Counted from the first letter of the stretch, positions 1,578-58,728 are shown. The stretch is DNA of 64,000 nt from an uncultured Gemmatimonadaceae bacterium (GCA_963829055.1 CAWHHI010000016.1:384001-448000), one strand, 5' to 3'. Notes: generated from the sequence alone by a model not told the origin. Translations and numbers: made by a program.

Positions 1578-3918
1578 ATGATGCATTACGTTGAACGGAC
1601 CTTCGCCGGTCGTCGTCTCCGCATCGAGACGGGCCGTATGGCGAAGCAGGCCGCTGGCTCGGCCGTCGTCCAGTTCGGAGACACCATGGTCCTCGCCGCA
1701 GTGACGGTGAGTGATCAACAGAGCCCGCTGCCGTTCTTCCCGCTCACGGTCGAGTATAAGGAAAAGACCTACGCGGCTGGCAAGATTCCCGGCGGCTTCA
1801 TCAAGCGCGAGGGTAGACCGCACGACGCTGAAATCCTTTCGGCACGGATCATCGACCGATCGATCCGCCCGCTGTTCCCGGAAGGATTCAAGAACGAAGT
1901 GCAGGTCTTCATCTACGTCATCTCCGCCGACCAGGAGAATGACGCGGACGTCCTCGCGCTCATCGCGACGTCGTACGCGCTGAACGCCTCGAGAATCCCA
2001 TTCTCGGGTCTGATCGGCGGCGTTCGCGTCGGCCGTATCCAGGATAAGTGGGTACTCAACCCGACGTTCCAGCAGCTCGGCTACAGCGATCTGGAGCTGG
2101 TCGTCTCGGCGTCCAATGACTCGATCGTGATGGTCGAGGGTGGCGCGCTCGAGGTGAGTGAGACCGATGTGCTCGACGCGCTCGGCGTTGCCCACAAGGG
2201 CATTCGCGAGCTCATCACGGCGCAGGAAGAGCTTCTGGCCAAGGCCGGTCGCGAGCCGAAGATGGAGTGGACCAAGGCCGTACCGCCCGAGGGCGTCGTC
2301 GCGCGCGTGAAGGCGCTCGCAGAAGGACGCATCAGCGAGGCGCTCAACCAGAAGGACAAGCACACGCGCATCGAAGCCGTGGAGCGCGCGAAGAAGGAGC
2401 TCGCCGAGCAGCTGCTCGTCGGATTTCCCGGACAACTCGAAGGACATTCACACGCTGCTCGGCGACGTCGAGTACAACAGCCTGCGTTCGCAGGTGCTCG
2501 ACACCAAGCACCGCGTCGATGGCCGTGGTCCGCGCGACGTCCGCGCGATCTCGATCGATACGGGATTGCTGCCGCGTGCGCACGGGTCGGCGTTGTTCAC
2601 CCGCGGTCAGACGCAGGCGCTCGTCGTTGCCACGTTAGGCACGGCCGACGACGTGCAGCGTCTCGACACGATCGACGACCCCGCGGAAACGACGAAGTCG
2701 TTCATGCTGCATTACAACTTCCCGCCGTTCTCCACGGGCGAAGTCCGACCCATGCGCGGCACCAGCCGCCGCGAGATCGGCCACGGGAATCTGGCCGAGC
2801 GCGCACTACAGGGCGTTCTGCCGCCGTTCGAGGAGTTCCCGTACACGATTCGCATCGTGTCCGACGTTCTCGAGTCCAACGGCTCCTCGTCGATGGCGTC
2901 CGTTTGCGGTGGCTCGCTCGCGCTGTTCGATGCCGGCGTTCCGACGCGTGCCGCCGTCGCTGGTGTGGCGATGGGCCTGATCAAGGAAGGCGAGCGCTAC
3001 GCGATCCTCACCGACATTCTCGGCACCGAGGATCACCTCGGCGACATGGATTTCAAGGTCGCCGGCACGACGAACGGCATCACGTCGATCCAGATGGACA
3101 TCAAGATCGAGGGACTCGAGCTCTCGATCATGAGCGAGGCCCTCGATCAGGCGAAGGAAGGCCGTCTCCATATCCTTGGTGAGATGGAGAAGGCGCTGGC
3201 TGCCCCGCGGGCCGACCTGTCGCCGTACGCTCCGCGCATCGTCACGGTGCAGATCAACCCCGAGAAGATCGGCGATCTCATCGGCCCGAAGGGCAAGACG
3301 ATCCGTGGCATCCAGGACGAGACTGGCGCAGAGATCAGCGTCGACGACTCGGGTACCGTCACCATCGCGGCCGTTGGCGGCGAGGCGATGGAGCGCGCGC
3401 GCCAGATGGTGCAGGCGATCACGCAGGAGCCGATCGTCGGAGACGTGTACGAGGGACTCGTGAAGAGCACGACGGCGTTCGGCGCGTTCGTGGAAATTCT
3501 GCCGGGCACCGAAGCGCTGCTTCACATCTCGGAGATGCGCCACGGCCGTACGGAGCGCACCGAGGATGTGGTCAAGAAGGGCGATCGCGTGAAGGTGAAG
3601 CTCATCGATCGCGATGAGCGTGGCCGCCTGCGCCTGTCGATGAAGGCGCTGCAGCCGAAGCCGGAAGGCGATACGGGCGAGGGTGCCGGCAACGGCTCCG
3701 AACCGCGTCGTGATCGAGGCGATCGTGGCGATCGCCCGCCGCGTGAGACTGCTGGCGCTGCCGGCGGCGAAGGTAGCGAGCCGTCGTACGCCGCTGCGAC
3801 CGCACCGGAGGAAGGCGAGGCGTCTGGCGAGTCCGCCGAGCGTGGCGAGAGGCCTCGTCGTCCGCGCCGTGGTGGCGGTGGCCGCGGTGGATCAGGCGGG
3901 GGACGCTCGCGCGAGTGA
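1578..3918 (+). CDS. pnp: polyribonucleotide nucleotidyltransferase (one frameshift near 2430)
   Basis: KIPGGFIKREGRP, FTRGQTQ, RREIGHG, ESNGSSSMAS, GDMDFKVAG, KH and S1 domains; split across ORFs 1554..3182 and 2494..3918. Confidence 0.97.
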
Positions 3919-5190
3919 TTACCCGCGTCGATACGCGCCTCGCCCCGGCGCTGCGGCGCTCTACGTTACCGAATGGACTGACCGTGCTCTCGGAGACCAT
4001 GCCGGGAGTGCGGTCGGTGTCGTTTGGGGCGTGGGTGCGCTCGGCCTCCATCCACGAAGAGCGTGAACGGATGGGCGTCTCGCACATGCTCGAGCACATG
4101 GTGTTCAAGGGGACGCGTGATCGCTCGGCGCGCGACATCGCGCTGGCGCTCGAGGTGCTCGGAGGATCGCTCGACGCCTACACGGCGCGTGAGCACACCT
4201 CGTTTCAGGCCCGTGTGCTCGATGAGCATCTGCCTCAGGCGGCGGACGTGATCGCCGATCTGATGTTCCGGCCCGTACTCCGCGCCAAGGATCTCACGCT
4301 CGAGCGAAAGGTTGTGCTCGAAGAGATCAGCATGGTCGACGACACACCGGATGACCTCGTGTTCGAGCTGCATAACGAGGCAATGTGGGGGAAGCACCCG
4401 TACGGATACTCGATCCTCGGCACGCGAGAGACGGTGTCCGCGCTGAGTGTCCGCGACCTGCGCGACCTGCACGAACGCGCGTACCACCCCGAGCACGTCG
4501 TCGTCGCTGTCTCGGGGAACGTGGACCATGACTCGCTGCTCGAGACGCTGGAGCGGACGGGGTGGTCGGATATCCCGCGCGGCAACACGCCGCTCGTCGA
4601 GACCGAGCGCCCTAACGCGGTGCCGGCACAGACGCTGCACGTCGATCGCGACTCGACGCAAACGCATCTCGTGTTCGGCGCACCCGCCATCCCGCACGGT
4701 GATCCGCGTCGATACGCGATGACGCTCATCAGCATGTTGCTCGGTGGCGGCATGAGCTCGCGGCTTTTTCAGCGCGTGCGTGAGGAGCTCGGGCTCGCCT
4801 ACTCCGTGTTCACGTACCAATCGTTCCATGCCGACGCCGGCGTGCACGGTGTGTACGTCGGTACCGCGCCGGAAAACGCGGAGGCGGCGGCCGACGCGAT
4901 CCGCACGGAATTGCGCCTGGTGGCGGAGCAGGGCATACCAGAATGCAGAACTGGCCGCGGGCAAAAGCCAGCTGAAAGGCCAGATCACGCTCTCGCTCGA
5001 GAGTGTGTCGTCGCGGATGTATCGCGCCGCGGCGGTGGAGCTGTACAACGAACCGTACAAGCCACTCGACCAGCTGTTGGCGGAGATCGATCGCATCGAC
5101 GGCGACACTGTGGCCGCAATCTGTCGTGAATTCTTTGCACCGGAACTTCACACGGTGCTCAGCCTTGGCCCCGCCGCTTCGGCGGCTTGA
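3915..5190 (+). CDS. M16 family zinc peptidase (frameshift near 4940)
   Basis: HMLEH (HxxEH), GGGMSSRLFQRVREELGLAYS; C-terminus lies in ORF 4780..5190. Confidence 0.93.
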
Positions 5191-5225
5191 CCTGAGACCC
5201 ACCACTTCACCACGACGGCACGACT

Positions 5226-6341
5226 ATGCGCATTGGCGTACCCAAAGAGATCAAGACGAACGAGAATCGTATCGCCCTCGTTCCGGCAGGAGCCGAGTCG
5301 CTGGTCGCGGCAGGCCACACGGTGATGATCGAGCAAGGCGGTGGAGAGGGTAGCGGATTCGCGGACTCCTTGTACACCGACGTTGGTGCGACCATTGCGC
5401 CCGATGCCGCGACGGTCTGGCGCGAAGCCGACATGATCATGAAGGTGAAGGAGCCGATCGAGCCGGAGTGGAAGCACATGCGCCGCGGGCAGGTGATCTT
5501 CACCTACTTCCATTTCGCGGCCGACGAGCGCCTAACGCGCGCACACATGGACTCGGGCGCGATCTGCATCGCGTACGAGACCGTCGAGCTACCGTCGCGC
5601 GAACTGCCGCTGCTCACGCCAATGTCGGAAGTCGCGGGGCGCATGGCCGTGCAGGAGGGCGCGAAGTACCTCGAGAAGCTGTACGGTGGTCGCGGCGTGC
5701 TGCTCGGCGGGGTTCCCGGGGTCGCGCCGGCAAAGGTCGTGATCCTTGGCGGCGGCGTGGTCGGTATCAACGCGGCAAAGATGGCGGCCGGGATGGGCGC
5801 GAAGGTGGTGGTGCTCGACATCTCGCTCGAGCGGCTGCGCTATCTGTCGGACGTCATGCCGGCGAACGTGCAGCTGATCCACTCGAATCGCCACAACATC
5901 CTCGAGCAGATCGAGACCGCGGATCTCGTGGTCGGCGGCGTGCTCATTCCCGGAGCGAAGGCGCCGAAGCTCATCCGGCGTGAAGACCTCAAGCGCATGC
6001 GTCCGGGCTCGGTCATCGTCGACGTGGCCATCGACCAGGGTGGCTGTATCGAGACCATCCACGCGACGACGCACGAGAACCCGACGTATGTGGTCGACGG
6101 CATCATCCATTATGGCGTCGCGAACATGCCGGGCGGCGTCCCGCGTACGTCGACGCTCGCGCTCACGAATGCGACGTTCCCGTATGCCGCGAAGTTGGCG
6201 AACAAGGGGTGGAAGCAGGCGCTCCGCGACAGCCCGGCGTTGCTCAAGGGGCTGAACGTGGTTGATGGCAAAGTCACCTATGCTGGTGTGGCCGAAGCGT
6301 TCGGTATGGAGTACTGCGAACCGGCTGCGTTCATCGCGTGA
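5226..6341 (+). CDS. ald: alanine dehydrogenase
   Basis: [38 protein letters not shown]. Confidence 0.97.
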
Positions 6342-6778
6342 GCCGCGTTCGCGTTCTCCGGCTGCCTAACAATCTGGATCTGCCGCTTCCGTCGCGGCAG
6401 ACGACCGGCTCCGCGGGTTTCGACCTGGCATCCGCGGAGCCGGACTTCGTTCTCGCGCCCGGAGAACGTCGGCTGGTCGCGACCGGGCTTTCGATCGAGC
6501 TTCCGCCGGGGGTGGAAGGGCAGGTACGCCCACGGTCGGGACTCGCGCTTCGGCACGGCCTGACGATGCCTAACGCGCCTGGTACCATCGACTCGGACTA
6601 CCGAGGCGAGTTGAAGGTGATTCTCCAGAATGGCGGACCCCAGCCAGTCACGATCGCGCGGGGGGACCGCATCGCGCAGGTGGTGTTCGCGCGGTATGAG
6701 ACGCCGGAGCTGGTGGATGCGACTGAGCTCGCGGACAGTCCGCGGGGCACTGGAGGGTTCGGAAGCACCGGCCTGTAG
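6338..6778 (+). CDS. dut: dUTP diphosphatase
   Basis: [33 protein letters not shown]. Confidence 0.97.
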
Positions 6779-6781: not shown

Positions 6782-7579
6782 GTGACATCGCGGCGCGGTG
6801 CGATGTTTGCGCTCCAGCCTCGCGTGATCCCACCCGTTCTCTGTTACCACAAGATCGAACGCCGGCGCGAGCTCGGCGTGACGCGCCTGTCTCCACGCCG
6901 TTTCTCGGCACAGATCGGGGCGTTGGCCGCGGCCGGGTGGCGCGGGATGTCGCTCGCGGATTTCGCGGCGACGGTGAGGGGTGAGCGGCGCGGAAGCGGT
7001 CGTGAACTCCTCGTCACCTTCGACGATGCCTACCGCGGTCTTCGCGACTTCGCGTTCCCGGTACTGCGCGACGCGGGGTTCTCGGCCGCGTGTTTCGTGA
7101 TCACGGATTTCGCGGGGCGACTGAACCGCTGGGACGTCGCGTATGGCGGCCGCCGTTTCGCGCACCTGGCGTGGCGCGACATCGAGAGGTGGAGCGCGCA
7201 CGGTGTCTCGTTCGAGTCCCACACGGTGAGTCATCCACGATTGTCGTGGGTGGATGATCGCCGGCTCGCCGAGGAGCTTTCCCGGTCACGGTCGGCGCTG
7301 GCAGCAGCGTTAGGTGCTCCGCCTCACGCGGTCGCGTATCCGTTTGGGGCGGTCGACGAGCGTGTCCGCGCAGCCTCGGTAGCGGCCGGCTACTCGCTTG
7401 GATTCGGCGTCGGTGGTCGGTGGCGCGGTGACCTGCTCGCGATTCCACGCGCTCCAGTGCACAGCTGGTCGCCGCTACTCCCGGCCGTCGGTCCGCTCGG
7501 TCCGTTGGAGCGCGGAGCGTCAGCGCTCGCAGGCCGCTGTTCCGTCGGCACGACGCTCTGGCACCACCTAACGGGATGA
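6782..7579 (+). CDS. polysaccharide deacetylase (NodB/CE4 family)
   Basis: LCYH, TFDD, HTVSHP, AYPFG motifs. Confidence 0.88.
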   Translation: MTSRRGAMFALQPRVIPPVLCYHKIERRRELGVTRLSPRRFSAQIGALAAAGWRGMSLADFAATVRGERRGSGRELLVTFDDAYRGLRDFAFPVLRDAGFSAACFVITDFAGRLNRWDVAYGGRRFAHLAWRDIERWSAHGVSFESHTVSHPRLSWVDDRRLAEELSRSRSALAAALGAPPHAVAYPFGAVDERVRAASVAAGYSLGFGVGGRWRGDLLAIPRAPVHSWSPLLPAVGPLGPLERGASALAGRCSVGTTLWHHLTG

Positions 7580-7585: not shown

Positions 7586-8776
7586 CTACACGAAGTACTT
7601 CATGACGACCGGGAGCAGCGACGGGTGCCTGACGAGTGCCTCGCCAAAGATCCGGCGCAGCGTTCGTCGTCGTTCAGGAATCCTGTTCACCGTCTGCGCG
7701 AGCGAGTCGTAGAACGCGTCGTCGAAGCGGGCAAGCGCTTCCTTCACCTGATAGAAGCGCACGTGGTCGTCGCCAAGGAGGCGCATCCACCGCGTCTGGT
7801 ACGATGCCAACGCGTCGGCGCCCGTGTTGCCCGCGGCGAGGGCGGAAAGTGCTGTCTCCGCGGCCAGGCGACCCGACTTCATCGCGTTCACGATACCGCC
7901 GCCGGATAGCGGATTGATCATGTGCGCCGCGTCTCCACACAGCATGAGGCCGTCGGCCGTTAGGCGCGGGATCGTCGCGGAGACGATGACGCCACCAATC
8001 GTTCGGCCCGATACTGCCGCGTTAGGAAAGTTCGCCGCCATGTAGTCGTCGAGCCACGCGAGCGCCGATCGGCCTCCGGCGCGCAGACCAAGAATGCCGA
8101 GGCCGACGTTGGCGGATCGAGTGCCCTTCGGGAATACCCATGCGTAACCACCCGGCGCGACGCGGTCACCGAAATGCAGCACGATCGCATCCGCGTCGAT
8201 CGGCTGATCATCGACGACATACTGCGCGCAGCTTTCCATGTCGCGGGCGCGGACGCGCGTGTCGATGCCCGCCCATCTGCCGACAGCCCCCTCGACACCG
8301 TCCGCGCCGACGACGATGCGCGCGCGAATCTCGCCTGTCTCGCCACCCGCAGAGACGCGCACACGCCATCGAGCGCCGTCGCGCTCCATGCTCGTGGCTT
8401 CGACAGACGAGCGGATGTCCGCGCCGGCTGCGCGAGCCTCCACCGCGATCGCTGGTTCGAACCGCGTGCGATCGAGGATGAAGCCAACGTCGCCCTCGGC
8501 GACTCGCACCTCGGTGCCATTCGGCGCGCGAAAGAGAACCCGTGTAATGCGACGCGAGATCCACGGCGCGAGAACACCGCCGGGCGCCGGATCGAGAAAC
8601 TCAGCGACACCGGCGGAGCCGACGCCTTCGCCGCACCGGACCGGCGCACCGATCGCGGCGTCGCGCTCGAGTACGATTACGGAGTGGCTGCGCCCGCGAG
8701 CTGCCGCTTCTCGCGCCGCGATCAGACCCGCAGGTCCGCCGCCAATGATGAGAACATTGCAATCTTCGATGCGCAC
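7586..8776 (-). CDS. geranylgeranyl reductase family FAD oxidoreductase
   Basis: GGGPAG, RCGEG, GADG, PGGYAWVFPK, GDAAHMINPLSGGGI. Confidence 0.9.
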   Translation of the reverse strand: MRIEDCNVLIIGGGPAGLIAAREAAARGRSHSVIVLERDAAIGAPVRCGEGVGSAGVAEFLDPAPGGVLAPWISRRITRVLFRAPNGTEVRVAEGDVGFILDRTRFEPAIAVEARAAGADIRSSVEATSMERDGARWRVRVSAGGETGEIRARIVVGADGVEGAVGRWAGIDTRVRARDMESCAQYVVDDQPIDADAIVLHFGDRVAPGGYAWVFPKGTRSANVGLGILGLRAGGRSALAWLDDYMAANFPNAAVSGRTIGGVIVSATIPRLTADGLMLCGDAAHMINPLSGGGIVNAMKSGRLAAETALSALAAGNTGADALASYQTRWMRLLGDDHVRFYQVKEALARFDDAFYDSLAQTVNRIPERRRTLRRIFGEALVRHPSLLPVVMKYFV

Positions 8777-8792
8777 GAAGCGAGTGGGGCGG

Positions 8793-9148: not shown

Positions 9149-10189
9149 ATGCGCTGGCCCTTTTTGAAAGCGGGAAGATCGTTTTTCCCGGCGAACGCCA
9201 TTGCGGTTGATCTCGGCACCGCCAACACACTGATCTACGTCAAGGGCGAAGGTATCGTTCTCAACGAACCCTCGGTCGTCGCGATCGATCGCGAGTCGAA
9301 GAAGATCAAGGGTGTCGGTCTCGAGGCCAAACGCATGCTCGGTCGCACGCCCGATGGCGTGCTCGCCGTACGACCGATGAAGGACGGCGTGATCGCCGAC
9401 TTCGACGTCACCGAGAAGATGCTCCGGTACTTCCTAACGCTGATCATCGAGAACCACGTGTTCAAGGTGAAACCGCGTGTGATTGTCTGTGTACCATCGG
9501 GCATCACGGAAGTGGAGAAGCGCGCAGTGCGCGATTCCGCGCTCGGAGCAGGCGCCAAGGAAGTGTTCATGGTCGCGGAGCCGATGGCCGCCGCGATCGG
9601 CGTCGGATTGCCGGTCGAGACGCCGACGGGCAACATGGTCATCGACATCGGCGGCGGCACGACGGAGATCGCGGTCATCGCGCTGTCCGGTATCGTGAGC
9701 GATACGTCGATTCGTACCGGCGGCGACGAGCTCGATACCGCGATCGTGCAGTTCATGCGCAAGAACTACAACTTGCTCATCGGCGAGCCGACGGCGGAGC
9801 AGATCAAGATCAACATCGGATCCGCCGCGCCGGTTGGCGACGAGCGCGAGATGGACGTGAAGGGGCGCGACCTCGTCTCCGGAATTCCGAAGACGGTGCG
9901 CGTGCATTCGAGCGAGATTCGTGAGGCGGTCCAGGAACCCATCCAGCAAATCGTCGACGCTGTTCGACGCGCACTCGAGATCACTCCACCGGAGCTCGCG
10001 AGCGACATTGTCGATCGTGGTATCGTCATGACCGGCGGCGGAGCGCTCATCCGCGGACTCGATCTGATGCTGGCGCAGGAAACCGGGCTGCCCATTCACG
10101 TCGACGAGGATCCGCTGACGTGTGTCGTGCGCGGCACCGGTCGCATTCTCGACGACGAAGAGAAATACTGGTCCGTCCTCAGTAGCTGA
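9149..10189 (+). CDS. mreB: rod shape-determining protein MreB
   Basis: [27 protein letters not shown]. Confidence 0.98.
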
Positions 10190-11261: not shown

Positions 11262-11746
11262 ACTGGACGCGCAGCGCGCGAGCCGTGCTCGCGTTCGCCC
11301 TTCTGGTGGTGCTGCACTACACTGTCAGGCCGCTGCTCGGTTGGCGCACGCCGGTGGACTTTCTCGTGATCGCGGTGCTACTCTCTGCTGTGCGAGTGCG
11401 GCCGGGTGCCGCGGCACTCATCGGTTTCTGCACCGGTCTCGTCGCCGATTCGTTGATGCCGAGCGCGTTCGGTGCTGGGGCGCTGGCCATGACGGCGGTG
11501 GGCGCGACCGCCTCGTGGCTCAAGGCCGTATTCTTCGCCGATAACGTGGTGCTCCACGGATTTTTCTTCTTCGTGGGCAAGTGGGCGTTCGACATCGTCT
11601 ACGTCACCGCTGAGCGGCGCATGCGCGGGGTCGAGCTCGCGACGCAGTTGTTGTTATGGTCCCCTCTGTCGGCCGCACTGACCGCCGTGGCCGGCGTGAT
11701 TCTGCTTCTGATGTTACGCCCGGTGCTGGAGCCGCAAGCTGCATGA
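11258..11746 (+). CDS. mreD: rod shape-determining protein MreD
   Basis: Multi-TM protein, GLVADSL..FG; lies between mreC and mrdA. Confidence 0.88.
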   Translation: MNWTRSARAVLAFALLVVLHYTVRPLLGWRTPVDFLVIAVLLSAVRVRPGAAALIGFCTGLVADSLMPSAFGAGALAMTAVGATASWLKAVFFADNVVLHGFFFFVGKWAFDIVYVTAERRMRGVELATQLLLWSPLSAALTAVAGVILLLMLRPVLEPQAA

Positions 11747-11768
11747 GCTTCCACGCATGAGCTTCCAC
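11741..11768 (+). repeat. exact 14-bp tandem duplication GCATGAGCTTCCAC
   Basis: Two adjacent copies, 11741-11754 and 11755-11768. Confidence 0.95.
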
Positions 11769-13549
11769 CCTAACGAGGTTCAACGACGCGGACGCACGGC
11801 GTCGGTCATACTCGCGGGAGCATTCGTGTTCCTCGCGTCGGCGTTCTTCCGCACGCAGATCCTCGAGCACGCCGCGTACACGCTGCAGTCGGAGACGAAC
11901 CGCCTGCGCGAAGTACCGCTGCCCGCGCCCCGGGCGATCATCTACGATCGGCACGGAGCCGTCATCGCGGAGAATCTGCCCGGCTACTCCGTCTCGATTC
12001 TCGCCAAGACGTCGGACTCGCTTCGCGTCGCGCTTCGTGGACTCGCGGGCGTCATCAACCTAACGCCAGAGCAGATCGAGGCCGCGGTCCGGCGTTTCAA
12101 GCAGGCGCCAAACCGGCCGACGACCGTGCTGGCGGATGCGAGCTTCGACGTCGTCTCGGTTCTCGAGGAGCATCGCGTCGACTACCCCGGTCTCATCATC
12201 CAGGCCGCGCCGAAGCGATACTACCCCGACAAGGAAGCAGTGGCGTCCTTCGTCGGATACACTGGCGAAATCACAGAATCCGAGCTGAACCAGCGTCCGT
12301 ACCGCGGCTACAAGTCGGGCCAGGAGGTCGGCAAGGCCGGACTCGAGCGGCAGTACGAGGCGCAGCTTCGCGGGAAGGAAGGCACACACTTCGTCGAGGT
12401 CGACGCGCGCGGACGCGTCGTCGGCGAGGCAGGCAGTGGGCGTGGCGACGTCGCGCCCGAGTCGCCAGACGCACTCTATACGAACATCGATCTCGATCTG
12501 CAGCGTTTTGCGGCCTCGTTGTTCGGCGACACGTTGCAGGGCGGCGTCATGGCGGTGGATCCGAAGACGGGGGAGGTGCTCGCGATCCATAGTGCGCCGA
12601 GCTTCGATCCGAATCGCTTCATTGGCGGCGTGTCGACTGAGTACTACTCGCAGCTTCGCGACGACCCACGTCGGCCGCTCTACAACAAGGTCATTCAAGG
12701 CCTCTACCCACCGGGATCGACGTTCAAGCTCGCGACGGCGATCATGGGGCTCGAGGCGGGCATCGTCGGGCTGGACGATCACATGCCGACGCCCTGCACG
12801 GGCGGGTACTTCTTCGGCAACCGCTACTTCCGTTGCTGGGACAAGAAAGGCCACGGCAACGTCAATCTGCGGCAGGCGATCGAGAAGTCCTGCGACGTCT
12901 ACTTCTATCAGCTCGGGCTGCGACTTGGCATCACGCGCATGCTCGCGGGCGGCGTGTCGCTCCGCATGAACGACAAGAGCGGCATCGACCTGCCTAACGA
13001 AAAACGGCCGCTCTGGCCATACGCCGCGGAATACTTCAACAAGCGCTACGGCCCCGGCGGCTGGAGCAACGGTGTGCTGCTGAGTCTCTCCATCGGGCAG
13101 GGCGAGAACTCACAGACCGTCGTCAACATGGCGAAGTTCTACACCGCGCTCGCCACGGATGGCTCGGTGGTGCGGCCGGAGATCGTGAAGCGGCAGACGG
13201 AGCGCACGAAGCTGTTCAAGCTGACGGCCGAGCAGATGGCGGGGCTGCAACAGGCGATGGCCGGCGTCGTGTCGTCGCGCGGCACCGCCGCGAGCGCGCA
13301 GATCCAGGGCGTCGTGATCGCGGGCAAGACCGGTACGGCGCAGAGCGGTGTCTTCCGCAACGGCATCGAGTTGAACCACGCCTGGTTCACCGGGCTACGC
13401 GCCCGCTGACGATCCCGAAGATCGTGGTCGTGGTGATGCTCGAGCAGGTGCCGTTTCACGGCACCGTCGCGGCGCTGATGGCGTCGAAGATGATCGAGCA
13501 TTACCTCAAGCGGCCGACTATTCAGGGCGCGCAGTTGGAGGGCGATTGA
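11757..13549 (+). CDS. mrdA: penicillin-binding protein 2 (frameshift near 13400)
   Basis: PGSTFK (SxxK), SCDVYFY, GKTGTAQ, HAWF; C-terminus continues in another frame to TGA 13549. Confidence 0.95.
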
Positions 13550-14796: not shown

Positions 14797-14852
14797 TACG
14801 AGAAGCTGGTAGCTGCCCGCTCGTGCTGGCCGCTGGTCGAAGCAAGGGTGCG

Positions 14853-17174: not shown

Positions 17175-17183
17175 ATTTCCCGG

Positions 17184-18503
17184 ATGTCTACAGGAGCATT
17201 GCCCGGGTTTCGCGATTTCTACCCCGCCGAGTTCGCCGAGCGATCGCACATCTTCGCCGCGTGGCGTGATGTCGCGCAGCGGTTCGCATTCGCCGAGTAC
17301 GATGGACCTCCGCTCGAGCCGCTCGATCTCTACACGAAGAAGAGTGGCGAGGAGATCGTCGGTCAGCTCTACAACTTCGAAGACAAGGGTGGTCGCCAGG
17401 TCGCACTGCGACCCGAGATGACGCCCACGGTTGCCCGCATGGTCGCCGCGCGCGCGAACGCGCTCCGTAGACCCGTGCGCTGGTTCTCGGTCCCACAGCT
17501 GTTTCGGTACGAGCGCCAGCAGAAGGGCCGACTGCGCGAGCACTTTCAGCTCAACGTCGACATCTTCGGCGAGCCCGATGTTTCGGCGGATGCCGAGCTG
17601 ATTGCGGTCGCCATCGAGATCATGCGCGCGCTTGGGCTCGGCCCGGACGCCGTGCGTGCGCGCGTGTCCGATCGACGACTGCTGAACGCGCTCCTGCTTG
17701 CGGCGGGCGTGACTGAATCGCAACTGCCCGCGACGTACGCCGTGATCGACAAGATCGAGCGGACGCCCCTCGCGCTGTCGCAACAGAAGTTGGCCGATGC
17801 CGGGCTCGCGGGCGACCTCCCTGCGACCATCACGTCGCTCGTGATCGAGGCGCGCTCGCTCGACGCACTGCGTAGCCGCTTTCCCGACGATGCCGCCGTG
17901 AACGAGCATGTCACGCGGTTCGAGCAATACTTCGCGGCGCTCGAGCAGCTCGGGGTCCGGGACTACGTGGATCTCGATCTTCGCATCGTACGCGGGCTCG
18001 CGTACTACACCGGCATCGTGTTCGAGCTGTTCGACGCGACCGGAGAGTTCCGCGCGATCTGCGGCGGTGGACGGTACGACAATCTGCTCCAGGCGTTAGG
18101 CGGCGTCGACATGCCGGCCCTGGGCTTCGGCATGGGCGACGTGGTGCTCGGTGAGCTGCTCCGGGCGCGAGACCTCATGCCCGCCGGCGCGCAGAAGATC
18201 GACTTCTGGGTTGCGCCCGTCACGGCGACGAACCGGCTGCACGCGGTCCGCGTCGCGACCGCGCTTCGCAATGCGGGCGCGTCCGCCGAGTATCCGTTGC
18301 GAGACCAGGCGTTGGGGAAGCAGCTCAAGGCCGCTGGCAATGCCGGGGCCGCGCGCGTCGTATTCGTCGGGCCCGAGCTGGAGGCACAAGGGCAGGTCGA
18401 GGTGAAGTCGCTCGTCGATGGAAACCAGCGAGCGCTGCCCCTCGATGAGCTCATTCGGCAGGTGCGCGATCACACCAGTGGTAGCTCGGATCGACCGCGG
18501 TAG
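17184..18503 (+). CDS. hisS: histidine--tRNA ligase
   Basis: [36 protein letters not shown]. Confidence 0.97.
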
Positions 18504-18580: not shown

Positions 18581-20050
18581 ATGTCCGACGATAAAAAACT
18601 GACGACCCGCGCGGCCGACTTCAGCGCGTGGTACAACGAACTCGTACTCCGCGCGGAGCTTGCGGACTACTCGCCCGTGCGTGGCTGCATGGTCATCCGG
18701 CCTAACGGCTACGGCATCTGGGAGCGCATGCAGCGGGCCCTGGATGACAGGTTCAAGGCGACCGGCCACAAGAACGCGTACTTCCCGCTGTTCATTCCGG
18801 AGAGCTTTCTGCACAAGGAGGCCGAACACGTCGAAGGGTTCGCGCCCGAGGCCGCGGTGGTCACGCACGGCGGTGGAAAGAAGCTCGAGGAACCCCTCGT
18901 CGTGCGACCCACGTCCGAGACGATCATCTACTCGATGTACGCGAAGTGGGTGCAGAGCTATCGTGACCTGCCCATTCTGATCAATCAGTGGGCGAACGTC
19001 GTGCGATGGGAGATGCGCACGCGACTCTTTCTGCGCACGCTGGAGTTTCTGTGGCAGGAAGGGCACACCGCGCACGTCTCGCACGACGAAGCGCAGGAAG
19101 AGACGCTCAAGATCCTCCGCCTCTATCGTGATTTCATGGAGGGTTGGATGGGCATGCCCGTGATCACCGGGCAGAAGTCGGACGCCGAGCGCTTCGCGGG
19201 TGCGCTTCGCACGTATTCGTGCGAGGCGATGATGCAGGACAACAAGGCACTCCAGGCCGGGACGTCGCACAACCTTGGCCAGAACTTCTCGAAAGCGTTC
19301 GAGCTCTCGTTCCAGACGGAAACCGGCGGGCAGGAGTTCGCCTGGAATACGAGCTGGGGAGTGTCGACGCGGCTCATTGGTGGCCTCGTGATGACGCACG
19401 GCGACGACGCCGGTCTCGTGACCCCTCCCATGCTTGCCCCCACGGAGCTGGTCATCGTTCCGATCTACCGGAGCGACGAGGAGCGATCCAAGGTGCTGGA
19501 GGCGGCGGGACAGATCGAGCGCGATCTGGGTCGCGCCGACCGCCGGTACCACAATCCGATTCGCGTTCATGTCGACCGGCGCGACGGGATGAAACCCGGG
19601 GCGAAGTACTACGAGTGGGAGCTGCGCGGCATCCCGCTACGGATCGAGCTCGGTCCACGCGATCTCGACAAGGGGCAGGCGGTGCTCGTGCGACGCGACA
19701 CGAAGGAGAAGAAGCCCGTGTCGCTCGATACGTTAGGCACGGAGGTGGAGACACTCCTCGTGCGGATTCAGAACGACATGCTCGCGCGTGCGCGTGACCG
19801 CCGCGAGGCGAACAGCCTTCGTGGCGGAATTACGTACGATCGCTTCCGTGAAGTCATGCAAGGCGACGGCGCGTTCGTCTACGCCGGCTGGTGCGGCAGC
19901 GGCGCATGCGAGGCGCAGATCAAGGAAGACACGAAAGCAACCATTCGCGTCCTGCCGGACGAGGAGTTCCGATCGGCCGAAGCCCCGACGACGTGTTTGA
20001 AGTGTGGGCAATCCGCTACAGCCGAGGCATTGTGGGCGAAAGCGTACTGA
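18581..20050 (+). CDS. proS: proline--tRNA ligase (archaeal/eukaryotic-like type)
   Basis: [30 protein letters not shown]-terminal Zn cysteines and ..AKAY; no INS editing domain. Confidence 0.97.
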
Positions 20051-43568: not shown

Positions 43569-44885
43569 ATGTCTTCGCGGAACCTTCCCTCGCTCGCGCA
43601 CGCCCTGAGCGTCGCGCCCGACTACGATGCTGCCCTGGTCGCACTCGGCGAAGGTCTCGCCGACGTCGACCGCACCGCACACCTCGGGCTGCTTCGCTAC
43701 GACGCGCGCCGGGAGATGCTGCGCGAGCGCCTGACGCCGCAACGGCGGGCGAGTCACGAAGACGCCAGTCGAGACGACGTTCGACCATCTGCCGGCGACC
43801 GATCCGCATGCAGGTCGCAGCCGGCGGGCAGTTCGTCGACCTCGGCGACCGATCGGCGGAGTACGCGCGCATGTTCAGCTTTCCGCCGTTCCCCGACGGC
43901 GGGATTCTGTCGCTGCGCGGCGTCCACGTCGACGGCTGTCTCGCGGCGGTCGTCGCGCTGTACGAGCAGAAGAAGATGTTCGGCACGCGGTCCGTCGAAC
44001 GCTTCGCGCCATTCGTCGCGTTGTTCGAGCTCGGGTACGCGCGGCTGGCCGAGCGCGAGGCGCGCGACGAGGCGGTGCGCACGCTCGAGGACGTCACGCA
44101 GCGCGTCCACGGCGAGTACGTGCGTCGGCTCGCGGAGCTCGAGCACGAGCTCATTCGCGCAAGGGACGAAGCCCGAGCGCCGACGAGCGATGAGGTGTCC
44201 GCTCGCATCGTCGCGCTCGAGCGCGAGGTCGCGAAGGCGAACGAGCAGGCGCGCAAGGCGAAGCGCCACTCCGATGAGATCGAAGGACACGTCACCGCCG
44301 CCGTGAGCCAGCTCGAGCAGGCGCACGTCGAGCTGCATCGACGCAGCGAGTCGCTTCGCCAGCGGACGCGAACGCTCTATCTCATCGAGCGCGTGCTCAA
44401 GCTCGACGCGACCGTCGCGGACCCCAGGCAGCTCGTCGACGGTCTGCTCGCACTCGTCGGCGACGACATGCAGGCGCAGCGCTGCTCGCTCATGCTCGTC
44501 GCCCCGGAGCCCGGGTACATCTTCCTGGCTGCGTCGCGCGGCCTCGCGCCGTTCATCGCCGAGGGCTCACGGATCAGGATCGGGCAGGGCGTCGCCGGCC
44601 GCGTCGCGCAGGCGCGCGAGCCGCTGCTCGTGCAGGACGTCAGGCAGGCGACGTCGCACCCGCTGCTGCTCGACCAGCATTTCACGACCGGCTCGTTCAT
44701 CAGCTTTCCGCTGGTCTATCAGGGTGAGCTGGTCGGCGTCGTGAACCTGACGAATCGCGCGCAGTACGGCGTGTTCGTGGACGAGGACCTCGAGCGTGTG
44801 CAGGCTCCTGGCGCTCGTCATCGCGCTCGTCGCCACGAACGCGTCGCTCGCGACGCGGCTCGTCGAGTCGATCGGCGCGCGTTAG
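43569..44885 (+). CDS. coiled-coil/GAF domain protein with no recognisable output domain (frameshifted)
   Basis: Long heptad coil then GAF (CSLML..GQGVAGRVAQ..SFISFPL..GVVNLTN). Confidence 0.8.
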
Positions 44886-44896
44886 GCGTACGCCGA

Positions 44897-47498: not shown

Positions 47499-48159
47499 GA
47501 TCAAGTTCTGCGGGCTGACGCGCGCAGACGGACGCGGCAGTTCGCCGCGTCGTTAGGCGCCGTCTACGTCGGCGTCATTTTCGCCGAGAGTCCGCGCCGC
47601 GTCGACCCGGGGCACGCGACCGCGGTGCTCGCCCGGCGTCGCGAGAGCGGGCAAGCACCGTCGGCGTGTTCGGTCCGGCGACCGTCGAGACCGATCGCGA
47701 CGATCGCCGCCGAGGCGGCACTCGACGTCGTGCAGCTTCACGGCGACCCGTCGCCGGGCGATCGTGGAGCGCATGCGACCGTTCTTCGGCGGCGAGGTCT
47801 GGGCCGTGGTCCGCATCGCCGGCGCGGAGCTGCCGGACGGACGCCGCGCGCGCTCCTCGCCGTGGCCGACGCCGTCGTGCTCGATGCGAAGGTGGCCGGG
47901 CGCAGCTCGGCGGCACGGGCACGGCGTTCGACTGGGACGGCGATCGCGCGAACACTCGACCGCGCAACGCGTTCGCGCGCGCGTCGTGCTCGCGGGCGGG
48001 TTGAATCCGGAGAACGTCGCACACGCCGTACGCATCGTCGCTCCCGACGTCGTCGATGTATCATCCGGCGTCGAGAGCGCACCCGGAATCAAGGACCACG
48101 CACGGATGCGCGCCTTCCGCGACGCCGTGCGACGACGAGGAGAGACGCTGAGTGAGTGA
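47488..48159 (+). CDS. trpF: phosphoribosylanthranilate isomerase (frameshifted)
   Basis: [41 protein letters not shown]. Confidence 0.93.
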
Positions 48160-49386: not shown

Positions 49387-51099
49387 CGCTTTCTTCCGTT
49401 CCGACTCCCGCCCAGGAGTCGGGTCGGCCCGAACCGCCGTTTTCGAGCACTCTCGTCGAGGAGATGCTCAAGAGTTCTCGTGAAGGCGGCCCGGGCCCAC
49501 CAGCTCTATCTGCACAACAATCCCACGTACCTGCGCGCGCTCGATATCGCCCGCGCGGCGTTCGCGCCCATCTGGGAAGTGACGGACGAGCTGGTGTTCG
49601 ACGTCACCGAGACGGAACTCCGGTGGCACGGCGAGGCGGTGCTGCGACGAGCCGGAGAAGGCGACCGACAACATCCCGTGGATGATGTACAAGGACGGGA
49701 TTCGCGAGCTGCGCCTGCTCAAGGAGTTCGAGCGCGACGAGCTCGTCCCGCTGCTCGACATCCTCCAGCGCGTCGCGCAAGGTCTCGCCGGAAGAGGACG
49801 ACCTGCTGACGATGCTCTGGGAGCAGGAGTTCTCGTATCTCCGCTATCGCTACATCGATCTCTCGACCGATCAGGCCGCGCCGATCGACAAGGCGGGGTT
49901 CCGCGGTGGCGAGGCCGGCGCGCAGGCGACTCCAGGAATCCGCGCCGCCGATCGACTCGACGGTCGTCGTCCGTCGTCAACCTCGAGGACTTCGACTCCA
50001 CGCTGTACTTCCTCGAGGAGAGCGAGGTCGAGTACCTCCGCGAAGAGGTGCGCAAGGAGTACGAGATCGACATGCGACGAAACGTCGTCGCGATGCTGCT
50101 CGACACGTACGAGACGCAGGGCGATCGCGGCGTGCGCGAGGAGATCGCCGGCGCTGCTCGACACGCTGATGCTGCACATTCTCTCGTCGGGCGAGTTCAA
50201 GACCGCGGCGTTCCTGCTCCGCGAGACCGCGCAGACGTGCCGAGCGCGCGCCGGGGATCACGCCGGAGCAGAAGGAGCAGCTGCTCCGCATTCGCGAATC
50301 GGCTCGAGCGAGCCCGAGGTGCTCGCGCAGCTCCTGCAGTCGCTCGACGAGGCGTCGCAGCTGCCCGACCAGGAGGACCTGAACGAGCTGTTCGACCAGT
50401 TGCGCGTCAGCGCGCTCGCGACGGTGTTCTCGTGGCTCACGAAGGCGCAGACGCCGCGGCTTCGCGTGCTGCTCGAGAACGCGGCGGCGCGCCTCGCCAT
50501 GGCGAACACCGCGGAGCTCGTGCGGCTCATCGGCTCGAGCGACCGCGACGTCGCGCGCGAGGCGATCCGCCGCGCCGGCGCCGTCACGCGCGACGGCCGC
50601 GGTCGCCGCGCTGGCGAAGCTGACGACCGATCCCGACGTGCAGATGCGCCTCGCCGGCGGTGCAGGCGTTAGGCGAGATCGCGTCGCCCGGCGCGCTGCA
50701 GTTTCTCGAGCGGACCATCGACGACGCGCATCGCGACGTCCGGGTCGCGACCGCGCGCGCGATCGCGGCGCGCGCGCATCGCCCGGCGCTGGCCGAAGAT
50801 CGAGGCCGCCATCAAGGGCAAGCTCGCCAGCGACGCCGACCTCACGGAGAAGATGGCGTTCTTCGAGGCATTCGGGACGCTCTGCGGCGACGGCGGCGTC
50901 AAGCTGCTCGACGGCATGCTCAACGCGCGCGGGCTGTTCGGCAAGAAGGAGGACCCGGAGCTGCGCGCCTGCGCCGCCATGGCGTTAGGCCGCAGTCGGC
51001 AGCGAAGCGGCCATCGCGACGCTGCGGCGCGCCGCCAACGAGAAGGAGGTGCTCGTCCGGAACGCCGTGAACCGCGCGCTGCGCGGAGGCACGGCATGA
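49383..51099 (+). CDS. HEAT-repeat protein (frameshifted)
   Basis: N-terminal ..RAHQLYLHNNP..YKDGIREL domain; C-terminal helical repeats (DVRVATARA, ELRACAAMALG, VRNAVNRAL). Confidence 0.75.
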
Positions 51100-53430: not shown

Positions 53431-55539
53431 ATGAATCGCTTCCTCTCGCTGTACGCGCGGCTCGTCGCGAGCCTCGGCACGGTGCTGCTGCTCGTGGCGC
53501 TCGTCGTCGACCCGCGGTGGATCGCGCGGCCGCTCGCGGTCGCGGCGATGATCGGCGTCGTCGCTCCTGCTGCGCACGTTCCAGATCCCGCTCACCAAGT
53601 ACTCGGCGCTCAACCTCCTCGGCATGGTGGCCGCGGGCGGTGCGGTCATCATCGGCGCGCCCGCGACCGCGTTAGGCCTGTACCTCGGCGTCTTCGTCGC
53701 CGACTGGTGGCTGCTGCGGAAAGCACCGCGCGGCGAGCGCGATCAACGCGGGCCGCGAGGCGCTCGCGCTGTTCGCGGCGTTCGGGTTCTACGCCTGGTT
53801 CGTCGGCGCTGAACGGCGGCGACGGACGTCGGCCGCATCACGACGGACATCGGTCCCTGCCGTCGCGCTGCTGCTCGCCGCGCACTTCCTGTTCAGCCGC
53901 GGGCTGCTCTACTGCACGCTGCTCATTCGCGACAAGCTGTTCGCCGACGAGCGGTCACTGATCCTGCGCTACGAGGTCATTGCGTTCGGCGCCGGCACGA
54001 TCGCGGTGCTCGTCGTCGCTCGTCACGATCGCCAGCGTCGGCTGGACCGGCTGGGTGGTCGTCGCGTTCGTGCTCGTCTTCGCCGGGCTGCTGCTCAAGC
54101 GCATCCTCGAGGAGGCCGTCGCGGCCGAGGAGCTGAACAAGATCCACGCGATGGAGCAGGTCGTGTCGTCGGACGCGAACCTCGCCGAGTCGCTGCACGC
54201 AGATCGAGCGCCTCGCGAACCGACTCGTCGACTGGAACGGCTTCCGCATCTGGCGACTGAGCAACGGGTCGCTTCGGCTCATCTACCAGGCGGGTGAAGG
54301 GCTGCTCGCCGAGCCGCGAGAGAACGGCGTGTTCGGCGGCCGGCTCCGCGACACGGCGATGAGCACCGGCGAGTCCACTCGTGATCGTCCGACGCCGCGC
54401 GCGACGCACGCGCCGAGGGCATCGGATCCGTCCGCCGTGAGTCTGGCGGTCGTTCCGCTGCGGTTCGGCGATCGCGCGATCGGGCTCGTCGAGCTCGATC
54501 ATCACAAGCGCGGCACGTACGGCGCCAAGGAGATCACGCTCGTCGCGCGCTTCGCGAACCAGCTCGCGACGGCGCTGCACATTCAGGATCTGCGACAGCC
54601 ACTGCTCGCGGCGCTCACTCGCGTCGAGACGCAGCTCGACACGCTCAACGACTCCGCGCGCGCACTGCGCGGCGGTGCCGAAGTCGTCGCCCGGAACACC
54701 GCGGAGATCACGCGCGGCATCGGCGAGGAGAGCGAGCAGGCGGACCGGAGCCTCGACGTCGCGCGCTCGTTCCACGACAAGACGTCCACGATCGTGCGCG
54801 ACGGCGGCGACGCGGCCAGCGCGAGCGAGCGCGCCACGCGCATCGCGACCGAGCATCGCGACACGATCGGCATGGCCATCGAGCGTCTCGTGAACGCGAA
54901 GCGGTTCGTCGGCGAGAGCGCGACGCAGATCGGCGGTCTCTCCAAGAGCACGCGGCGCATCACGGACTTCATCGCCGTGATCAAGGAGCTGGCCGACCAG
55001 ACCAACCTGCTCGCGCTGAACGCGGCGATCGAGGCTGCACGTGCTGGCGAGCAGGGGCAGGGCTTCGCCGTCGTGGCCAACGAGGTCCGAAAGCTCGCGG
55101 AGCAGAGCGCGCGCGCGTCGGAGGACGCCGGCGACATCGTGACCGGGTTCGAGGATCAGATGCGACAGGTCGCGTCGCAGGTCGGTCGCGGCCAGACGAT
55201 GATGAGCGACGTCGAGTCGCTCTCGGAATCGGCGCGCACCGCGCTCGACGAGATCGTCGAAGCGACCGCGCGCGCAGTCTGACGTGGGGCCAGCGCATCG
55301 CGGACACGTCGCGCGTGCAGGAGTCGGAGGTCGGGCGTCTCAGCGAGCGCGTCGCGCGCATCGCGGAGATCTCGCGCCGCAATCGTGAAGGGGCGGAGAA
55401 CGTCACGCGATCGGCGGCCGATCAGGCGCGAGCGCTCCGCGAGCTCGAAGGCGCTGCGCACGAGCTCCGCGAGGTCGCGGCGTCCCTGAGCGATCTTACG
55501 CGCCGAATCGCGCGCGTCGCGTCGCATTCGGCGAACTGA
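53431..55539 (+). CDS. methyl-accepting chemotaxis-type protein: multi-TM, GAF, MA domain (frameshifted)
   Basis: Hairpin tip [40 protein letters not shown] ([21 protein letters not shown]); several N-terminal TMs. Confidence 0.88.
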
Positions 55540-56858: not shown

Positions 56859-57713
56859 GTGGAGCAGATCGAGCACTATCGCCAGGCGTCCGCGCGGCGG
56901 TCGCGGCGGCGCGCGCGCGCGGCGAGCGCATCGGATTCGTGCCGACAATGGGGTTTCTGCACGAGGGCCATCTGCGACTCGTCGACGAAGCGAAACGGCG
57001 CGCGGGTTGCGTGGTGATGAGCCTCTTCGTCAACCCGACGCAGTTCGGCCCGAACGAGGACTTCTCGCGCTACCCTCGGGACCTGAGCGGCGACATGGCG
57101 AAGGCCGAAGGTCGAGGCGTCGACCTGTTGTTCGTGCCGGACGTCGCCGAGATGTATCCGACGCCGCCCGCACTCCACGTGATGGCCGATGACTTGCCGA
57201 CGCGATGGGAAGGCGAGGTTCGGCCCGGCCACTTCGGCGGCGTGCTGACGGTCGTGGCAAAGCTGTTCAACATCGTCGCGCCGGACGTCGCGATATTCGG
57301 ACGAAAGGATTTCCAGCAGGCGACTCTCATTCGGCGCATGGTGCGCGAGCTGAACTTCCCGATCGAGTCGTCGTCGCGCCGACGGTGCGCGAGCACGACG
57401 GCCTCGCGCTGTCGAGCCGCAACACCTATCTCGACGCATCGGCGCGCGCGAGCGCGTCTGGCGCTGGTCGAGAGCCTACGCGCGGCGCGAGCGCGCGTTC
57501 GCGGCCGGCGAGCGCGACGGTGAGCGGCTGACCGCGATCGGCCGCGAGTCGCTCGCCACGCATCCCGAGGTCGGCGTCGATTACTTCGCGGTCGTCGATC
57601 CGACCGAGATGCAACCAGTCGAGAAAGCGACGAGCGACAGCGTCGCCATCGTCGCGGCGCGCGTCGGTCCGACGCGTCTCATCGACAACATGATCCTCGG
57701 CGAAGGGACATGA
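56859..57713 (+). CDS. panC: pantoate--beta-alanine ligase (frameshifted)
   Basis: [45 protein letters not shown]. Confidence 0.95.
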
Positions 57714-58284
57714 GTGGCGATCATGTCGCCGCCGACGGTCACGGCCTCGGAGCATCGGGCTGCCGGCATGGGCGCAGGTCACGGAGAAGCGGCGCGCGCA
57801 CATTGCGCGCGTCACCGCCTGCTGGATCAGTGGGCCGGCATCGCTCGGCCTTGCCGCCGGACGAGCGGCAGGCGTGGCACGACGTCGGCGTGCTTCACGA
57901 CGCGCTTCGCGACGCCGCGGAGGAGGAGCTCCGGCGTCTGACGGGTGACACGCGATCGCCCAATGCACATCCTGCACGGGCCCGCTGTGGCCGAGCGCCT
58001 CGACGCGGGAAGGGGAGGCGCGGCCGGACGTGCTCGAGGCGATCCGCTGGCACACGTTAGGCAGCGCACACTGGGCGCGCACCGGGAAGGCGCTCTACAT
58101 GGCCGACTTTCTCGAGCCCGGCCGTCCGTTCTCGCGCGCTGACCGCGCGTTTCTCGCCGCGCACGTGACGACCGACTTCGACGGCGTGTTCCGGCAGGTG
58201 GTGCGGACGCGCATCGAATGGACGGTGCGGGAAGGGAAGATGCTGTTTCCCGAAACCGCCGATCTCTGGAACACCGTCCGATGA
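57710..58284 (+). CDS. YqeK-like HD-domain hydrolase (frameshifted)
   Basis: HIARV, VLHDA, LHGPA, AIRWHTLG, LYMADFLEPGR. Confidence 0.78.
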
Positions 58285-58728
58285 AGCCACGCGCTCGATG
58301 GTTGATCGCCGCGCATCATCGTGCTCGCGGCCGGTGGTGGCGTCGCCGCCGTTGCCTGGCGTCGCCCGCTCCCGGTTCGTTCGACACGCGCTCGGTCGTC
58401 TCGTCACTCCAAGGCGCACGGCGCCGCGCGAACACGCGCGTGCGCGTCGAGATCATCAACGCGACGCGGACACGCGGCCTCGCTCGTCGCGCGACCCGTT
58501 TGCTGCGGGACCGCGGGTTCGACGTGGTGACGTTCGGGAACAGCGACACGACGCAGGACTCGACGGTCGTGCTCGACCGCACGAATCACGCGGAGTGGGC
58601 GCAGGCTGGTCGGCAAGGCGTTAGGCGGGGCGCGCGTCGAGGCGCGCCCGGACACGTCACGCTACGTGGACGTCACCGTGGTGCTCGGCGCCGCGTGGCG
58701 GCCGCCGCCGCAGCCGTTCAGCCCGTAG
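58281..58728 (+). CDS. LytR C-terminal domain protein (frameshifted)
   Basis: N-terminal TM, VRVEIINAT..GLA..LRDRGFDVV..GN, DVTVVLG. Confidence 0.82.

Follow-up and report, generated by a model that had tools for sequence, protein, structure and literature searches.

An uncultured soil bacterium of the Gemmatimonadaceae carries thousands of copies of the word CGTTAGGC, and our analysis shows that this is a real and strong genomic word, written at the level of DNA and of the same kind as the DNA uptake sequences (DUS) of Neisseriaceae, the uptake signal sequences (USS) of Pasteurellaceae and the cyanobacterial HIP1, in a phylum new to such words. The word was noticed in a 64,000-nucleotide stretch of the genome, here called the window (C16:384001-448000 of assembly G000, which comprises 7.78 Mb in 20 contigs and is 86% complete), where an earlier note made from the sequence alone had listed 30 copies of the 7-mer CGTTAGG. 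Hyper-abundance at the DNA level, gain by substitution, retention above background and even spacing all support a reading of (C)GTTAGGC as a lineage-specific 'self word', akin to DUS and USS and kept by biased transmission through DNA uptake or recombination, an explanation that we put forward tentatively.

Abundance of the word in the window and in the genome

In the window, CGTTAGG or its reverse complement is present at every one of the 30 coordinates that had been reported (Table 1), compared with 2.10 copies (standard deviation 1.40, largest 7) in 100 dinucleotide-preserving shuffles. The 8-mer CGTTAGGC occurs 23 times (shuffle mean 0.88, standard deviation 0.95, largest 5), so that the enrichment claimed for the 8-mer stands but the count of 24 does not; the seven other sites are 7-mers only. 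The window has a GC content of 67.4%, TA is depleted to 0.44 of expectation and 30 of the 43 TTAG/CTAA tetramers lie inside the 7-mer, which bears out the statements that TA is depleted here and that most such tetramers belong to the motif. Motif-bearing genes called in the window include mreB and the genes for PBP2, HisRS, ProRS, dUTPase and alanine dehydrogenase. The three readings that had been proposed, TTA-GGC, CTA-ACG and CCT-AAC, are all found in called window genes (as NCG-TTA-GGC, GC-CTA-ACG and G-CCT-AAC-G); gene calls are poor between 30 and 64 kb.

Across the whole of G000 we counted 6391 copies of the 7-mer and 5004 of the 8-mer, or about one copy per 1-1.5 kb. The 8-mer ranks first of all 8-mers under both order-2 and order-3 Markov models (102 expected, 49-fold; 258 expected, 19-fold) and so comes through the Markov check that the earlier note had proposed. 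Maximal-order z-scores were uninformative, since the word's own sub-words dominate the counts behind them, and the order-2 and order-3 models were used in their place. Around the 7103 GTTAGG cores of the genome, the preceding base is C in 90% and the following base in 79%, with no conservation further out in the flanks save a three-base coding rhythm; such a strict word of 7-8 bases, lacking a flanking consensus, argues for a bare word and not a repeat element. Several one-off variants are enriched as well (CGTTAGGT, 827 copies; CGTTATGC, 583; TGTTAGGC, 435; CGTTAGGG, 428).

Genes were called in G000 by codon log-likelihood, and because these calls cover 77% of the genome and undercount genes, all counts of non-coding copies are upper bounds. 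Within 5141 called coding sequences (5.2 Mb) the word occurs 2992 times, compared with a mean of 129 in 10 synonymous shuffles that preserve the amino acids, so that a 23-fold enrichment remains under the codon-shuffled null that had also been suggested. Of the TTA codons in these genes, 1223 of 2613 fall within the word, as do 821 of the 7531 CCT codons. The word occupies all four open frames, most often NCG-TTA-GGC (1325 copies), followed by G-CCT-AAC-G (919), GC-CTA-ACG (609) and C-GTT-AGG-C (455); the 28 copies placed in both stop-codon frames inside called genes are likely miscalls, and 1666 copies lie outside or at the edge of called genes. Per kb, the word occurs 0.56 times in coding DNA and 0.92 times outside it. 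Its density is raised 2-3-fold from 50 nucleotides before to about 100 nucleotides after stop codons, and the word supplies the stop codon of 240 of 4300 well-scored genes, through CGT-TAG-GC at 103 of 1124 TAG stops and through GCC-TAA-CG at 137 of 552 TAA stops. The 100 nucleotides before start codons show a rise of only about 1.4-fold, in line with the denser non-coding DNA. The claim of a DNA-level signal is thus borne out by four reading frames, both stop-codon frames, non-coding DNA and the excess over the synonymous null.

We additionally examined the orientation and spacing of the copies. The 8-mer is read forward 2547 times and in reverse 2457 times in G000. A runs test of orientation gave z = -2.8, and 12 runs of at least nine copies were found where we estimate that about 10 would be expected. 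Because one-orientation runs are near chance, the run of + strand copies between 25 and 59 kb of the window means nothing; we had considered it as a polar feature and rejected it, such run lengths being at chance level genome-wide. Spacing is more even than chance, with 213 gaps shorter than 200 bp where an exponential distribution predicts about 611. On contig C16, GC skew and gene direction undergo a terminus-like switch near 550 kb, and the presumed leading strand holds 158 of 269 copies (59%) to the left and 197 of 370 (53%) to the right of it. A gene for a Xer-like tyrosine recombinase (C16:540795-541592) lies about 9 kb from this switch.

Gain, retention and distribution of the word

Sites are gained by substitution, often two steps away from a common codon, for example from CGCTCGGC to CGTTAGGC. 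At position 18094 of the window, three aligned orthologues carry a CTC-GGC (Leu-Gly) run (CGCTCGGC in two, CACTCGGC in one), and TTA in G000 therefore replaces the common leucine codon CTC. The genus of G000 (g1, G000-G006) is collinear over the 41 kb aligned. A motif site was identical in 58 of 117 ordered genus pairs, compared with 23% for any 8-mer window, and over a further 20 kb in 17 of 30, compared with a baseline of 29%, the pairs in both counts not being independent. The word turns over, half of the sites doing so within the genus, yet it is retained about twice as often as background. G001, G002 and G005 share five of six window sites; G003 and G004, with about half the copy number, share one of six each.

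Among 31 genomes compared, the word is abundant in all seven of the genus and in G014 (5.1 Mb, 6360 copies), and G010 and G030 carry it at moderate levels; the remaining genomes have 3-194 copies, mostly under the reversed-word control. When 151 genomes were sampled across the phylum, no more than five (G000, G162, G117, G127 and G170) exceeded twice the control, all of them from one order. The unpublished genomes G013, G081 and G120 each enter these counts as one motif-poor row, and no conclusion depends on them. A PBP2 tree, built as a single-gene FastTree with motif density taken from loci of at most 22 kb, places at least four separate motif-rich lineages among motif-free ones. Dialects are also apparent: lineage L071 prefers NGTTAGGC and the genus of G000 prefers C, from which it follows that the common core is a 7-mer. 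When other hyper-abundant words were sought in the loci of motif-poor relatives, none was convincing except the palindrome GGAATTCC in two loci from other Gemmatimonadaceae lineages (L046 and L048), which has 8 and 7 copies in 16-22 kb where base composition predicts about 0.2-0.3, and is possibly a further word of the iterated type.

Three deserts of 31-50 kb at contig ends of G000 lack GTTAGGC altogether (C6:5441-55037, C6:591809-623330 and C11:7377-46790). They hold core genes (AroC, FtsK, DAHP synthase, FolD and M17 peptidase), of which second copies are found elsewhere in G000 at 47-59% identity, so that these stretches are most likely chimeric or contaminant; their identification as prophages was rejected on account of the housekeeping genes inside. 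In addition, a scan of viral contigs revealed three motif-rich phage records from IMG/VR, with 0.37-1.83 copies per kb. These are a 17-kb fragment with head, portal and terminase genes (G031, the same as L174; 31 copies, 0.36 expected), a 44-kb record rated 98% complete (G032; 29 copies) and a provirus (G033; 18 copies). G032 carries genes for RecT, a replication initiator, terminase, portal protein and endolysin, and 18 of its 29 copies stand in the sense TTA-GGC frame, the orientation bias following gene direction.

The individual window sites are listed in Table 1. Two other repeats were noted alongside them: k-mer counts put a second family, whose core resembles TGTCATTCCGAGCG, at roughly 700-1000 copies in G000, and an inverted pair of ~45-base repeats at 28454-28501 and 28981-29025 of the window has well over 100 matching places in genus genomes.

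Table 1. Copies of the word in the window, with the reading or gene at each site (ORF, open reading frame; Orn/DAP, ornithine/diaminopimelate)
Element	Position	Strand	Context
8-mer CGTTAGGC	2633..2640	+	ACG-TTA-GGC (T-L-G), PNPase-like gene 2494-3918
7-mer (CCCTAACG on + strand)	4611..4617	-	CCT-AAC (P-N), M16 peptidase gene 3915-5129
8-mer	5530..5537	-	CGC-CTA-ACG (R-L-T), alanine dehydrogenase gene 5226-6341
8-mer	6568..6575	-	CCT-AAC (P-N), dUTPase gene 6338-6778
7-mer (CGTTAGGT)	7308..7314	+	GCG-TTA-GGT, polysaccharide deacetylase gene 6782-7579
7-mer	7567..7573	-	CAC-CTA-ACG, 3' end of polysaccharide deacetylase gene 6782-7579
8-mer	7958..7965	+	Antisense in - strand FAD oxidoreductase gene 7589-8779, there CGC-CTA-ACG
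7-mer (CGTTAGGA)	8020..8026	+	CCT-AAC in - strand FAD oxidoreductase gene 7589-8779
7-mer	9433..9439	-	TTC-CTA-ACG (F-L-T), mreB 9149-10189
7-mer	11769..11775	-	CCT-AAC, PBP2 gene 11757-13409
7-mer	12059..12065	-	AAC-CTA-ACG, PBP2 gene 11757-13409
8-mer	12992..12999	-	CCT-AAC, PBP2 gene; kept in 4 of 5 aligned genus genomes, fifth one base off
8-mer	18094..18101	+	GCG-TTA-GGC, HisRS gene
8-mer	18700..18707	-	CCT-AAC, ProRS gene 18581-20050
8-mer	19731..19738	+	ACG-TTA-GGC, ProRS gene 18581-20050
8-mer	20270..20277	+	TCG-TTA-GGC, N-terminal piece of split Orn/DAP decarboxylase gene
8-mer	20620..20627	-	Between both pieces of split Orn/DAP decarboxylase gene
8-mer	25566..25573	+	GCG-TTA-GGC, AIRC-domain gene 25136-25894; G001, G002 and G005 one base off, G003 and G004 two
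8-mer	26589..26596	+	No called gene; kept in G001, G002 and G005; CGCTCGGC in G004, CACTCGGC in G003
8-mer	33872..33879	-	GCG-TTA-GGC, - strand ORF 33776-34267
8-mer	35411..35418	+	Antisense GGC-CTA-ACG, PurL-like fragment 34901-35482; kept in 5 of 5 genus genomes compared
8-mer	37459..37466	+	Frameshift-ridden stretch, gene call unreliable
8-mer	39606..39613	+	Without reliable gene call
8-mer	44880..44887	+	GCG-TTA-GGC, ORF 43808-45439 (GAF and TrpD-like pieces)
8-mer	47551..47558	+	No called gene
8-mer	50667..50674	+	No called gene
8-mer	50983..50990	+	No called gene
8-mer	53670..53677	+	Weak gene call only
8-mer	58055..58062	+	ACG-TTA-GGC, small ORF 58030-58284
8-mer	58619..58626	+	No called gene

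Uptake, integrons and other explanations

We suggest that some step of DNA exchange or maintenance, presumably DNA uptake or recombination, may prefer word-bearing DNA. Point mutations that create the word would therefore be passed on or fixed more often than those that destroy it, by molecular drive and possibly also by selection, and over time the word would spread wherever protein constraint allows, in synonymous rare codons, stop codons and spacers. The best analogue would appear to be an uptake sequence. Most of the USS and DUS traits listed in an excerpt of Findlay and Redfield (2009; PMC2817400) are matched here: like DUS and USS, the word is equally frequent in both orientations, evenly spaced, denser outside genes and found in several reading frames. 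In common with them it is also short and non-palindromic, has lineage dialects, is carried by host phages and is missing from foreign DNA. It is likewise present in thousands of copies, far above composition- and codon-based expectation. In a part of PMC6776037, temperate Pasteurellaceae phages are described as building up USS to host-like levels, so that the carriage of the word by phages fits the uptake analogy, unless G032 is lytic. HIP1, the other hyper-abundant 8-mer known, is now proposed to act in transformation, according to an excerpt of PMC13756078. DprA is present in G000. The likeness to DUS, USS and HIP1 that the earlier note had drawn is apt, and literature searches agree with its statement that no description exists for this lineage: they returned no paper on the word, the letter-string matches listed being primer or oligonucleotide uses. 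Unlike DUS and USS, the word is 7-8 bases long with no AT-rich flank, lies in rare and not in preferred codons with little effect on peptide frequencies, and is identical to the core of integron attC sites, in another phylum.

Several observations weigh against transmission biased by uptake. Literature searches found no competence or uptake bias reported for this phylum. ComEC is present in 31 of 31 genomes and so cannot separate motif-rich from motif-poor ones, the PilQ-like secretin match in G000 (258.5 bits) falls under the 284-bit cut-off, and a search of the 86% complete G000 for ComEA (TIGR00426) gave no match. Inverted terminator pairs, typical of DUS and USS, are rare here (74 at 40-135 nucleotides). 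Protein composition is barely changed by the word and its dipeptide effect is small, with Pro-Asn at 1.39 of expectation compared with 1.24 for Asn-Pro and 26% of Pro-Asn pairs written with the word; the same excerpt of Findlay and Redfield (2009; PMC2817400) has USS roughly doubling their tripeptides. In G032 no tyrosine integrase was detected, nor any integrase or repressor family at E <= 1e-5, and drive through a prophage stage would not predict 29 copies in such a phage. Finally, the occurrence of the same word in at least four lineages and its match to the attC core are not explained by uptake bias alone.

A HIP1-like word could instead be selected in place, as the binding site of an abundant chromosomal protein (nucleoid, repair or replication) unrelated to DNA exchange, which we consider possible but rather unlikely. 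HIP1 (GCGATCGC) is characterized in an excerpt of PMC5861425 as a hyper-abundant 8-mer, 15-300-fold enriched, that lies both inside genes and between them, is more conserved than background and long had no known function, and is argued there to be kept by selection and to be related to chromosome structure. Our word is likewise a hyper-abundant 8-mer in and between genes with above-background conservation, and its even spacing, its retention at about twice background and its lack of any position preference relative to promoters would all suit a site selected where it stands; phages replicating in such hosts would gain from the same sites. Set against this, close relatives with the same cell biology lack the word, their 3-60 copies falling short of the reversed-word control; within the genus, half of the sites turn over; and no candidate protein was found.

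The earlier note missed that the word is the core of an integron attC site. The R' core of attC has the consensus GTTRRRY, and the letters of the word are identical to the R' core of attC sites in this order, where attC starts with GCCTAAC and ends with (C)GTTAGGC. In the motif-poor genomes G021, G019 and G029, copies of the word are densely packed on one strand in clusters that are integron cassette arrays, one of which (G021:C80) adjoins intI. Their attC sites are ~90-136 nucleotides long, with GCCTAAC(A) at the start and (C)GTTAGGC at the end, an ending shared by arrays in unrelated viral-collection contigs. The imperfect inverted repeat typical of attC (R''-L''...L'-R', about 55-140 nucleotides, folding into a hairpin) is present in the arrays of these three genomes and is not found for the genomic copies. 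The word enriched in L071 is exactly the 7-base R box. G000 itself carries a divergent intI on the - strand (C20:208041-208958; 265.7 bits) with an intact frame of 336 amino acids, beside which stand word-bearing repeats, including 13-mers such as TCCGCCTAACGCC (three copies) on its 3' side; a same-strand run of the word is also present on its other side (C20:189000-218500).

Repeats that contain the word were also observed elsewhere. The viral-collection contig L111 (42% GC) has 14 copies of the 12-mer CGTTAGGCGATG on one strand at the boundaries of open reading frames, lacking the GCCTAAC partner, with CCGTTAGGCGATG in 13 of the 14, and L155 (30% GC) has tandem units of roughly 110-190 bp ending in CGTTAGGCG. 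These repeats indicate that the word is part of other repeat systems outside this phylum.

Given this identity, the word might be read by the integron machinery, that is by IntI or a related tyrosine recombinase, with chromosomal R-box cores serving as landing, exit or decoy sites for cassettes. The confinement of dense word clusters to cassette arrays in motif-poor relatives, the exact R box of L071, the recurrence of the word in at least four lineages of an order in which integron integrases are common, and the intI of G000 with its neighbouring repeats all speak for this, and yet we regard it as unlikely. The integrase (TIGR02249) is over cut-off in 18 of 31 genomes, motif-poor and motif-rich alike; it was not found over cut-off in the motif-rich G002, G004 and G010 and is in three broken pieces in G014. 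It is strong in many motif-poor genomes and does not co-distribute with the word. Genomic copies share their letters with attC but have no partner box, hairpin or regular cassette spacing, and most stand in housekeeping genes. Only 74 inverted word pairs at 40-135 nucleotides, few of them with stem complementarity, were found beside 5004 copies in G000; attC sites therefore explain less than 2% of copies, and more than 98% are without an attC partner or hairpin. Moreover, sites cut by a recombinase should be lost and not gained, and recombination among 5000 sites should disrupt gene order, whereas the genus stays collinear over 41 kb. Although GTCTAAC, the R'' variant, is frequent in attC sites, CGTTAGAC shows no enrichment in G000 (24 copies). 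A broader form of the idea, in which the word owes its hyper-abundance to its identity with the integron R box, either through DNA uptake or recombination via the cassette core or through IntI-family proteins that use chromosomal cores as entry and exit points, seems to us improbable; the same 7-mer in at least four lineages of this integron-rich order would fit a shared, pre-existing reader.

A Chi-like site had been named among the candidates, and we considered the related possibility of an anti-nuclease self tag, in which a helicase-nuclease or defence system spares word-bearing DNA and chromosome and phages both gain the word. Chi and KOPS-type words (KOPS, FtsK-orienting polar sequences) are, like ours, over-represented short asymmetric words at the DNA level, and they are strongly skewed to the leading strand. 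By comparison, our word stands 59% and 53% on the presumed leading strand on the two sides of the C16 switch, its enrichment is far greater, and the strong strand skew switching at origin or terminus that typifies Chi and KOPS is not seen; its orientation runs are near chance. The three phage records that carry the word would fit such a tag, as would the AddAB-like gene pair (PDDEXK_1) of G000 and some genus members. RecC, however, was found in none of the 31 genomes. AddAB-like pairs occur in 13 of 31, unrelated to motif load: they were not found in the motif-richest G014, nor in G001, G002, G005 and G010, yet eight motif-poor genomes have them. In phage G032, too, the bias in orientation goes with gene direction and the TTA-GGC frame. 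We thus judge a Chi-like role to be improbable as well.

Methylation was the other candidate to lose ground. A role as the target of a restriction-modification methylase, or an origin as the by-product of methylation and mismatch-specific repair of the very-short-patch type, is very unlikely in our estimate. HIP1 is recognized by two methylases, according to the same excerpt of PMC13756078, and a D12-class adenine methylase (PF02086) is present in seven of seven genus genomes, both of which would favour a methylase. HIP1 is palindromic in the excerpts cited, unlike our asymmetric word, and none of four methylase families co-distributes with the word. With intI, ComEC, RecC and PDDEXK_1 these make eight families compared across 31 genomes each, none of which tracks it. 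At E <= 1e-8, in genus genomes of 5.7-7.8 Mb and 77-92% completeness, C5 methylases (PF00145) were found in none of the seven and not in G014, N6_N4 methylases (PF01555) in none of the seven, and N6_Mtase (PF02384) in one of the seven; six motif-poor genomes likewise have the D12 methylase, of which no match was found in G014, G010 or G030. In addition, repair of a single type of mismatch cannot yield two-step changes with transversions such as CTC to TTA. As a separate observation, many smaller relatives carry several C5, N6_N4 or N6_Mtase methylases, unlike genus g1.

The assembly does contain errors. Contigs of up to four independent runs show an extra A after 14839 and one base fewer at each of 20493 and 20632/3, the gene for Orn/DAP decarboxylase is broken in two (19993-21326), and many housekeeping genes between 30 and 64 kb of the window give truncated or fused domain matches, which together indicate frameshift errors. 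The word itself is real despite these indels. Six other genomes of the genus, assembled in 260-1170 contigs each, hold 2501-5112 copies. When 21 kb were aligned with four public assemblies of the genus (~80% identical), copies of the word were found at corresponding positions, and record titles of the orthologous loci resemble those of short-read assemblies. The stretch itself is present in sequencing runs of 16 studies. Positions 11001-21000 of the window are covered by contigs from four runs of four studies, and the X2 contig over 18012-18730 has six differences, none of them in its two motif sites, which are the only sites for which we claim identity in the contig comparison. An artefact of base calling, polishing or assembly, which the earlier note would have recognized by absence of the word from related short-read assemblies, is therefore refuted, indel errors notwithstanding, since other assemblies and the contigs of four studies carry the word at matching positions.

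Implications

Words of such abundance are known from few groups, and each of them, USS, DUS and HIP1, has opened a way to study the discrimination between own and foreign DNA in bacteria. At the practical level, the word could assign phages to motif-rich Gemmatimonadales hosts, and it can mark out chimeric or foreign DNA in metagenome bins, the three deserts of G000 being examples.

The identity of the word with the cassette core raises the possibility of a link between genome-wide tagging and cassette traffic. If uptake were based on the core, gene import would be tuned to integron cassettes; if IntI-family proteins used chromosomal cores, such genomes would be a place where new cassettes are made, and to our knowledge the origin of integron cassettes is an open question. 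A case in the Gemmatimonadota, a soil phylum that is common but has received little study, would show that the phenomenon is not confined to Proteobacteria and cyanobacteria.

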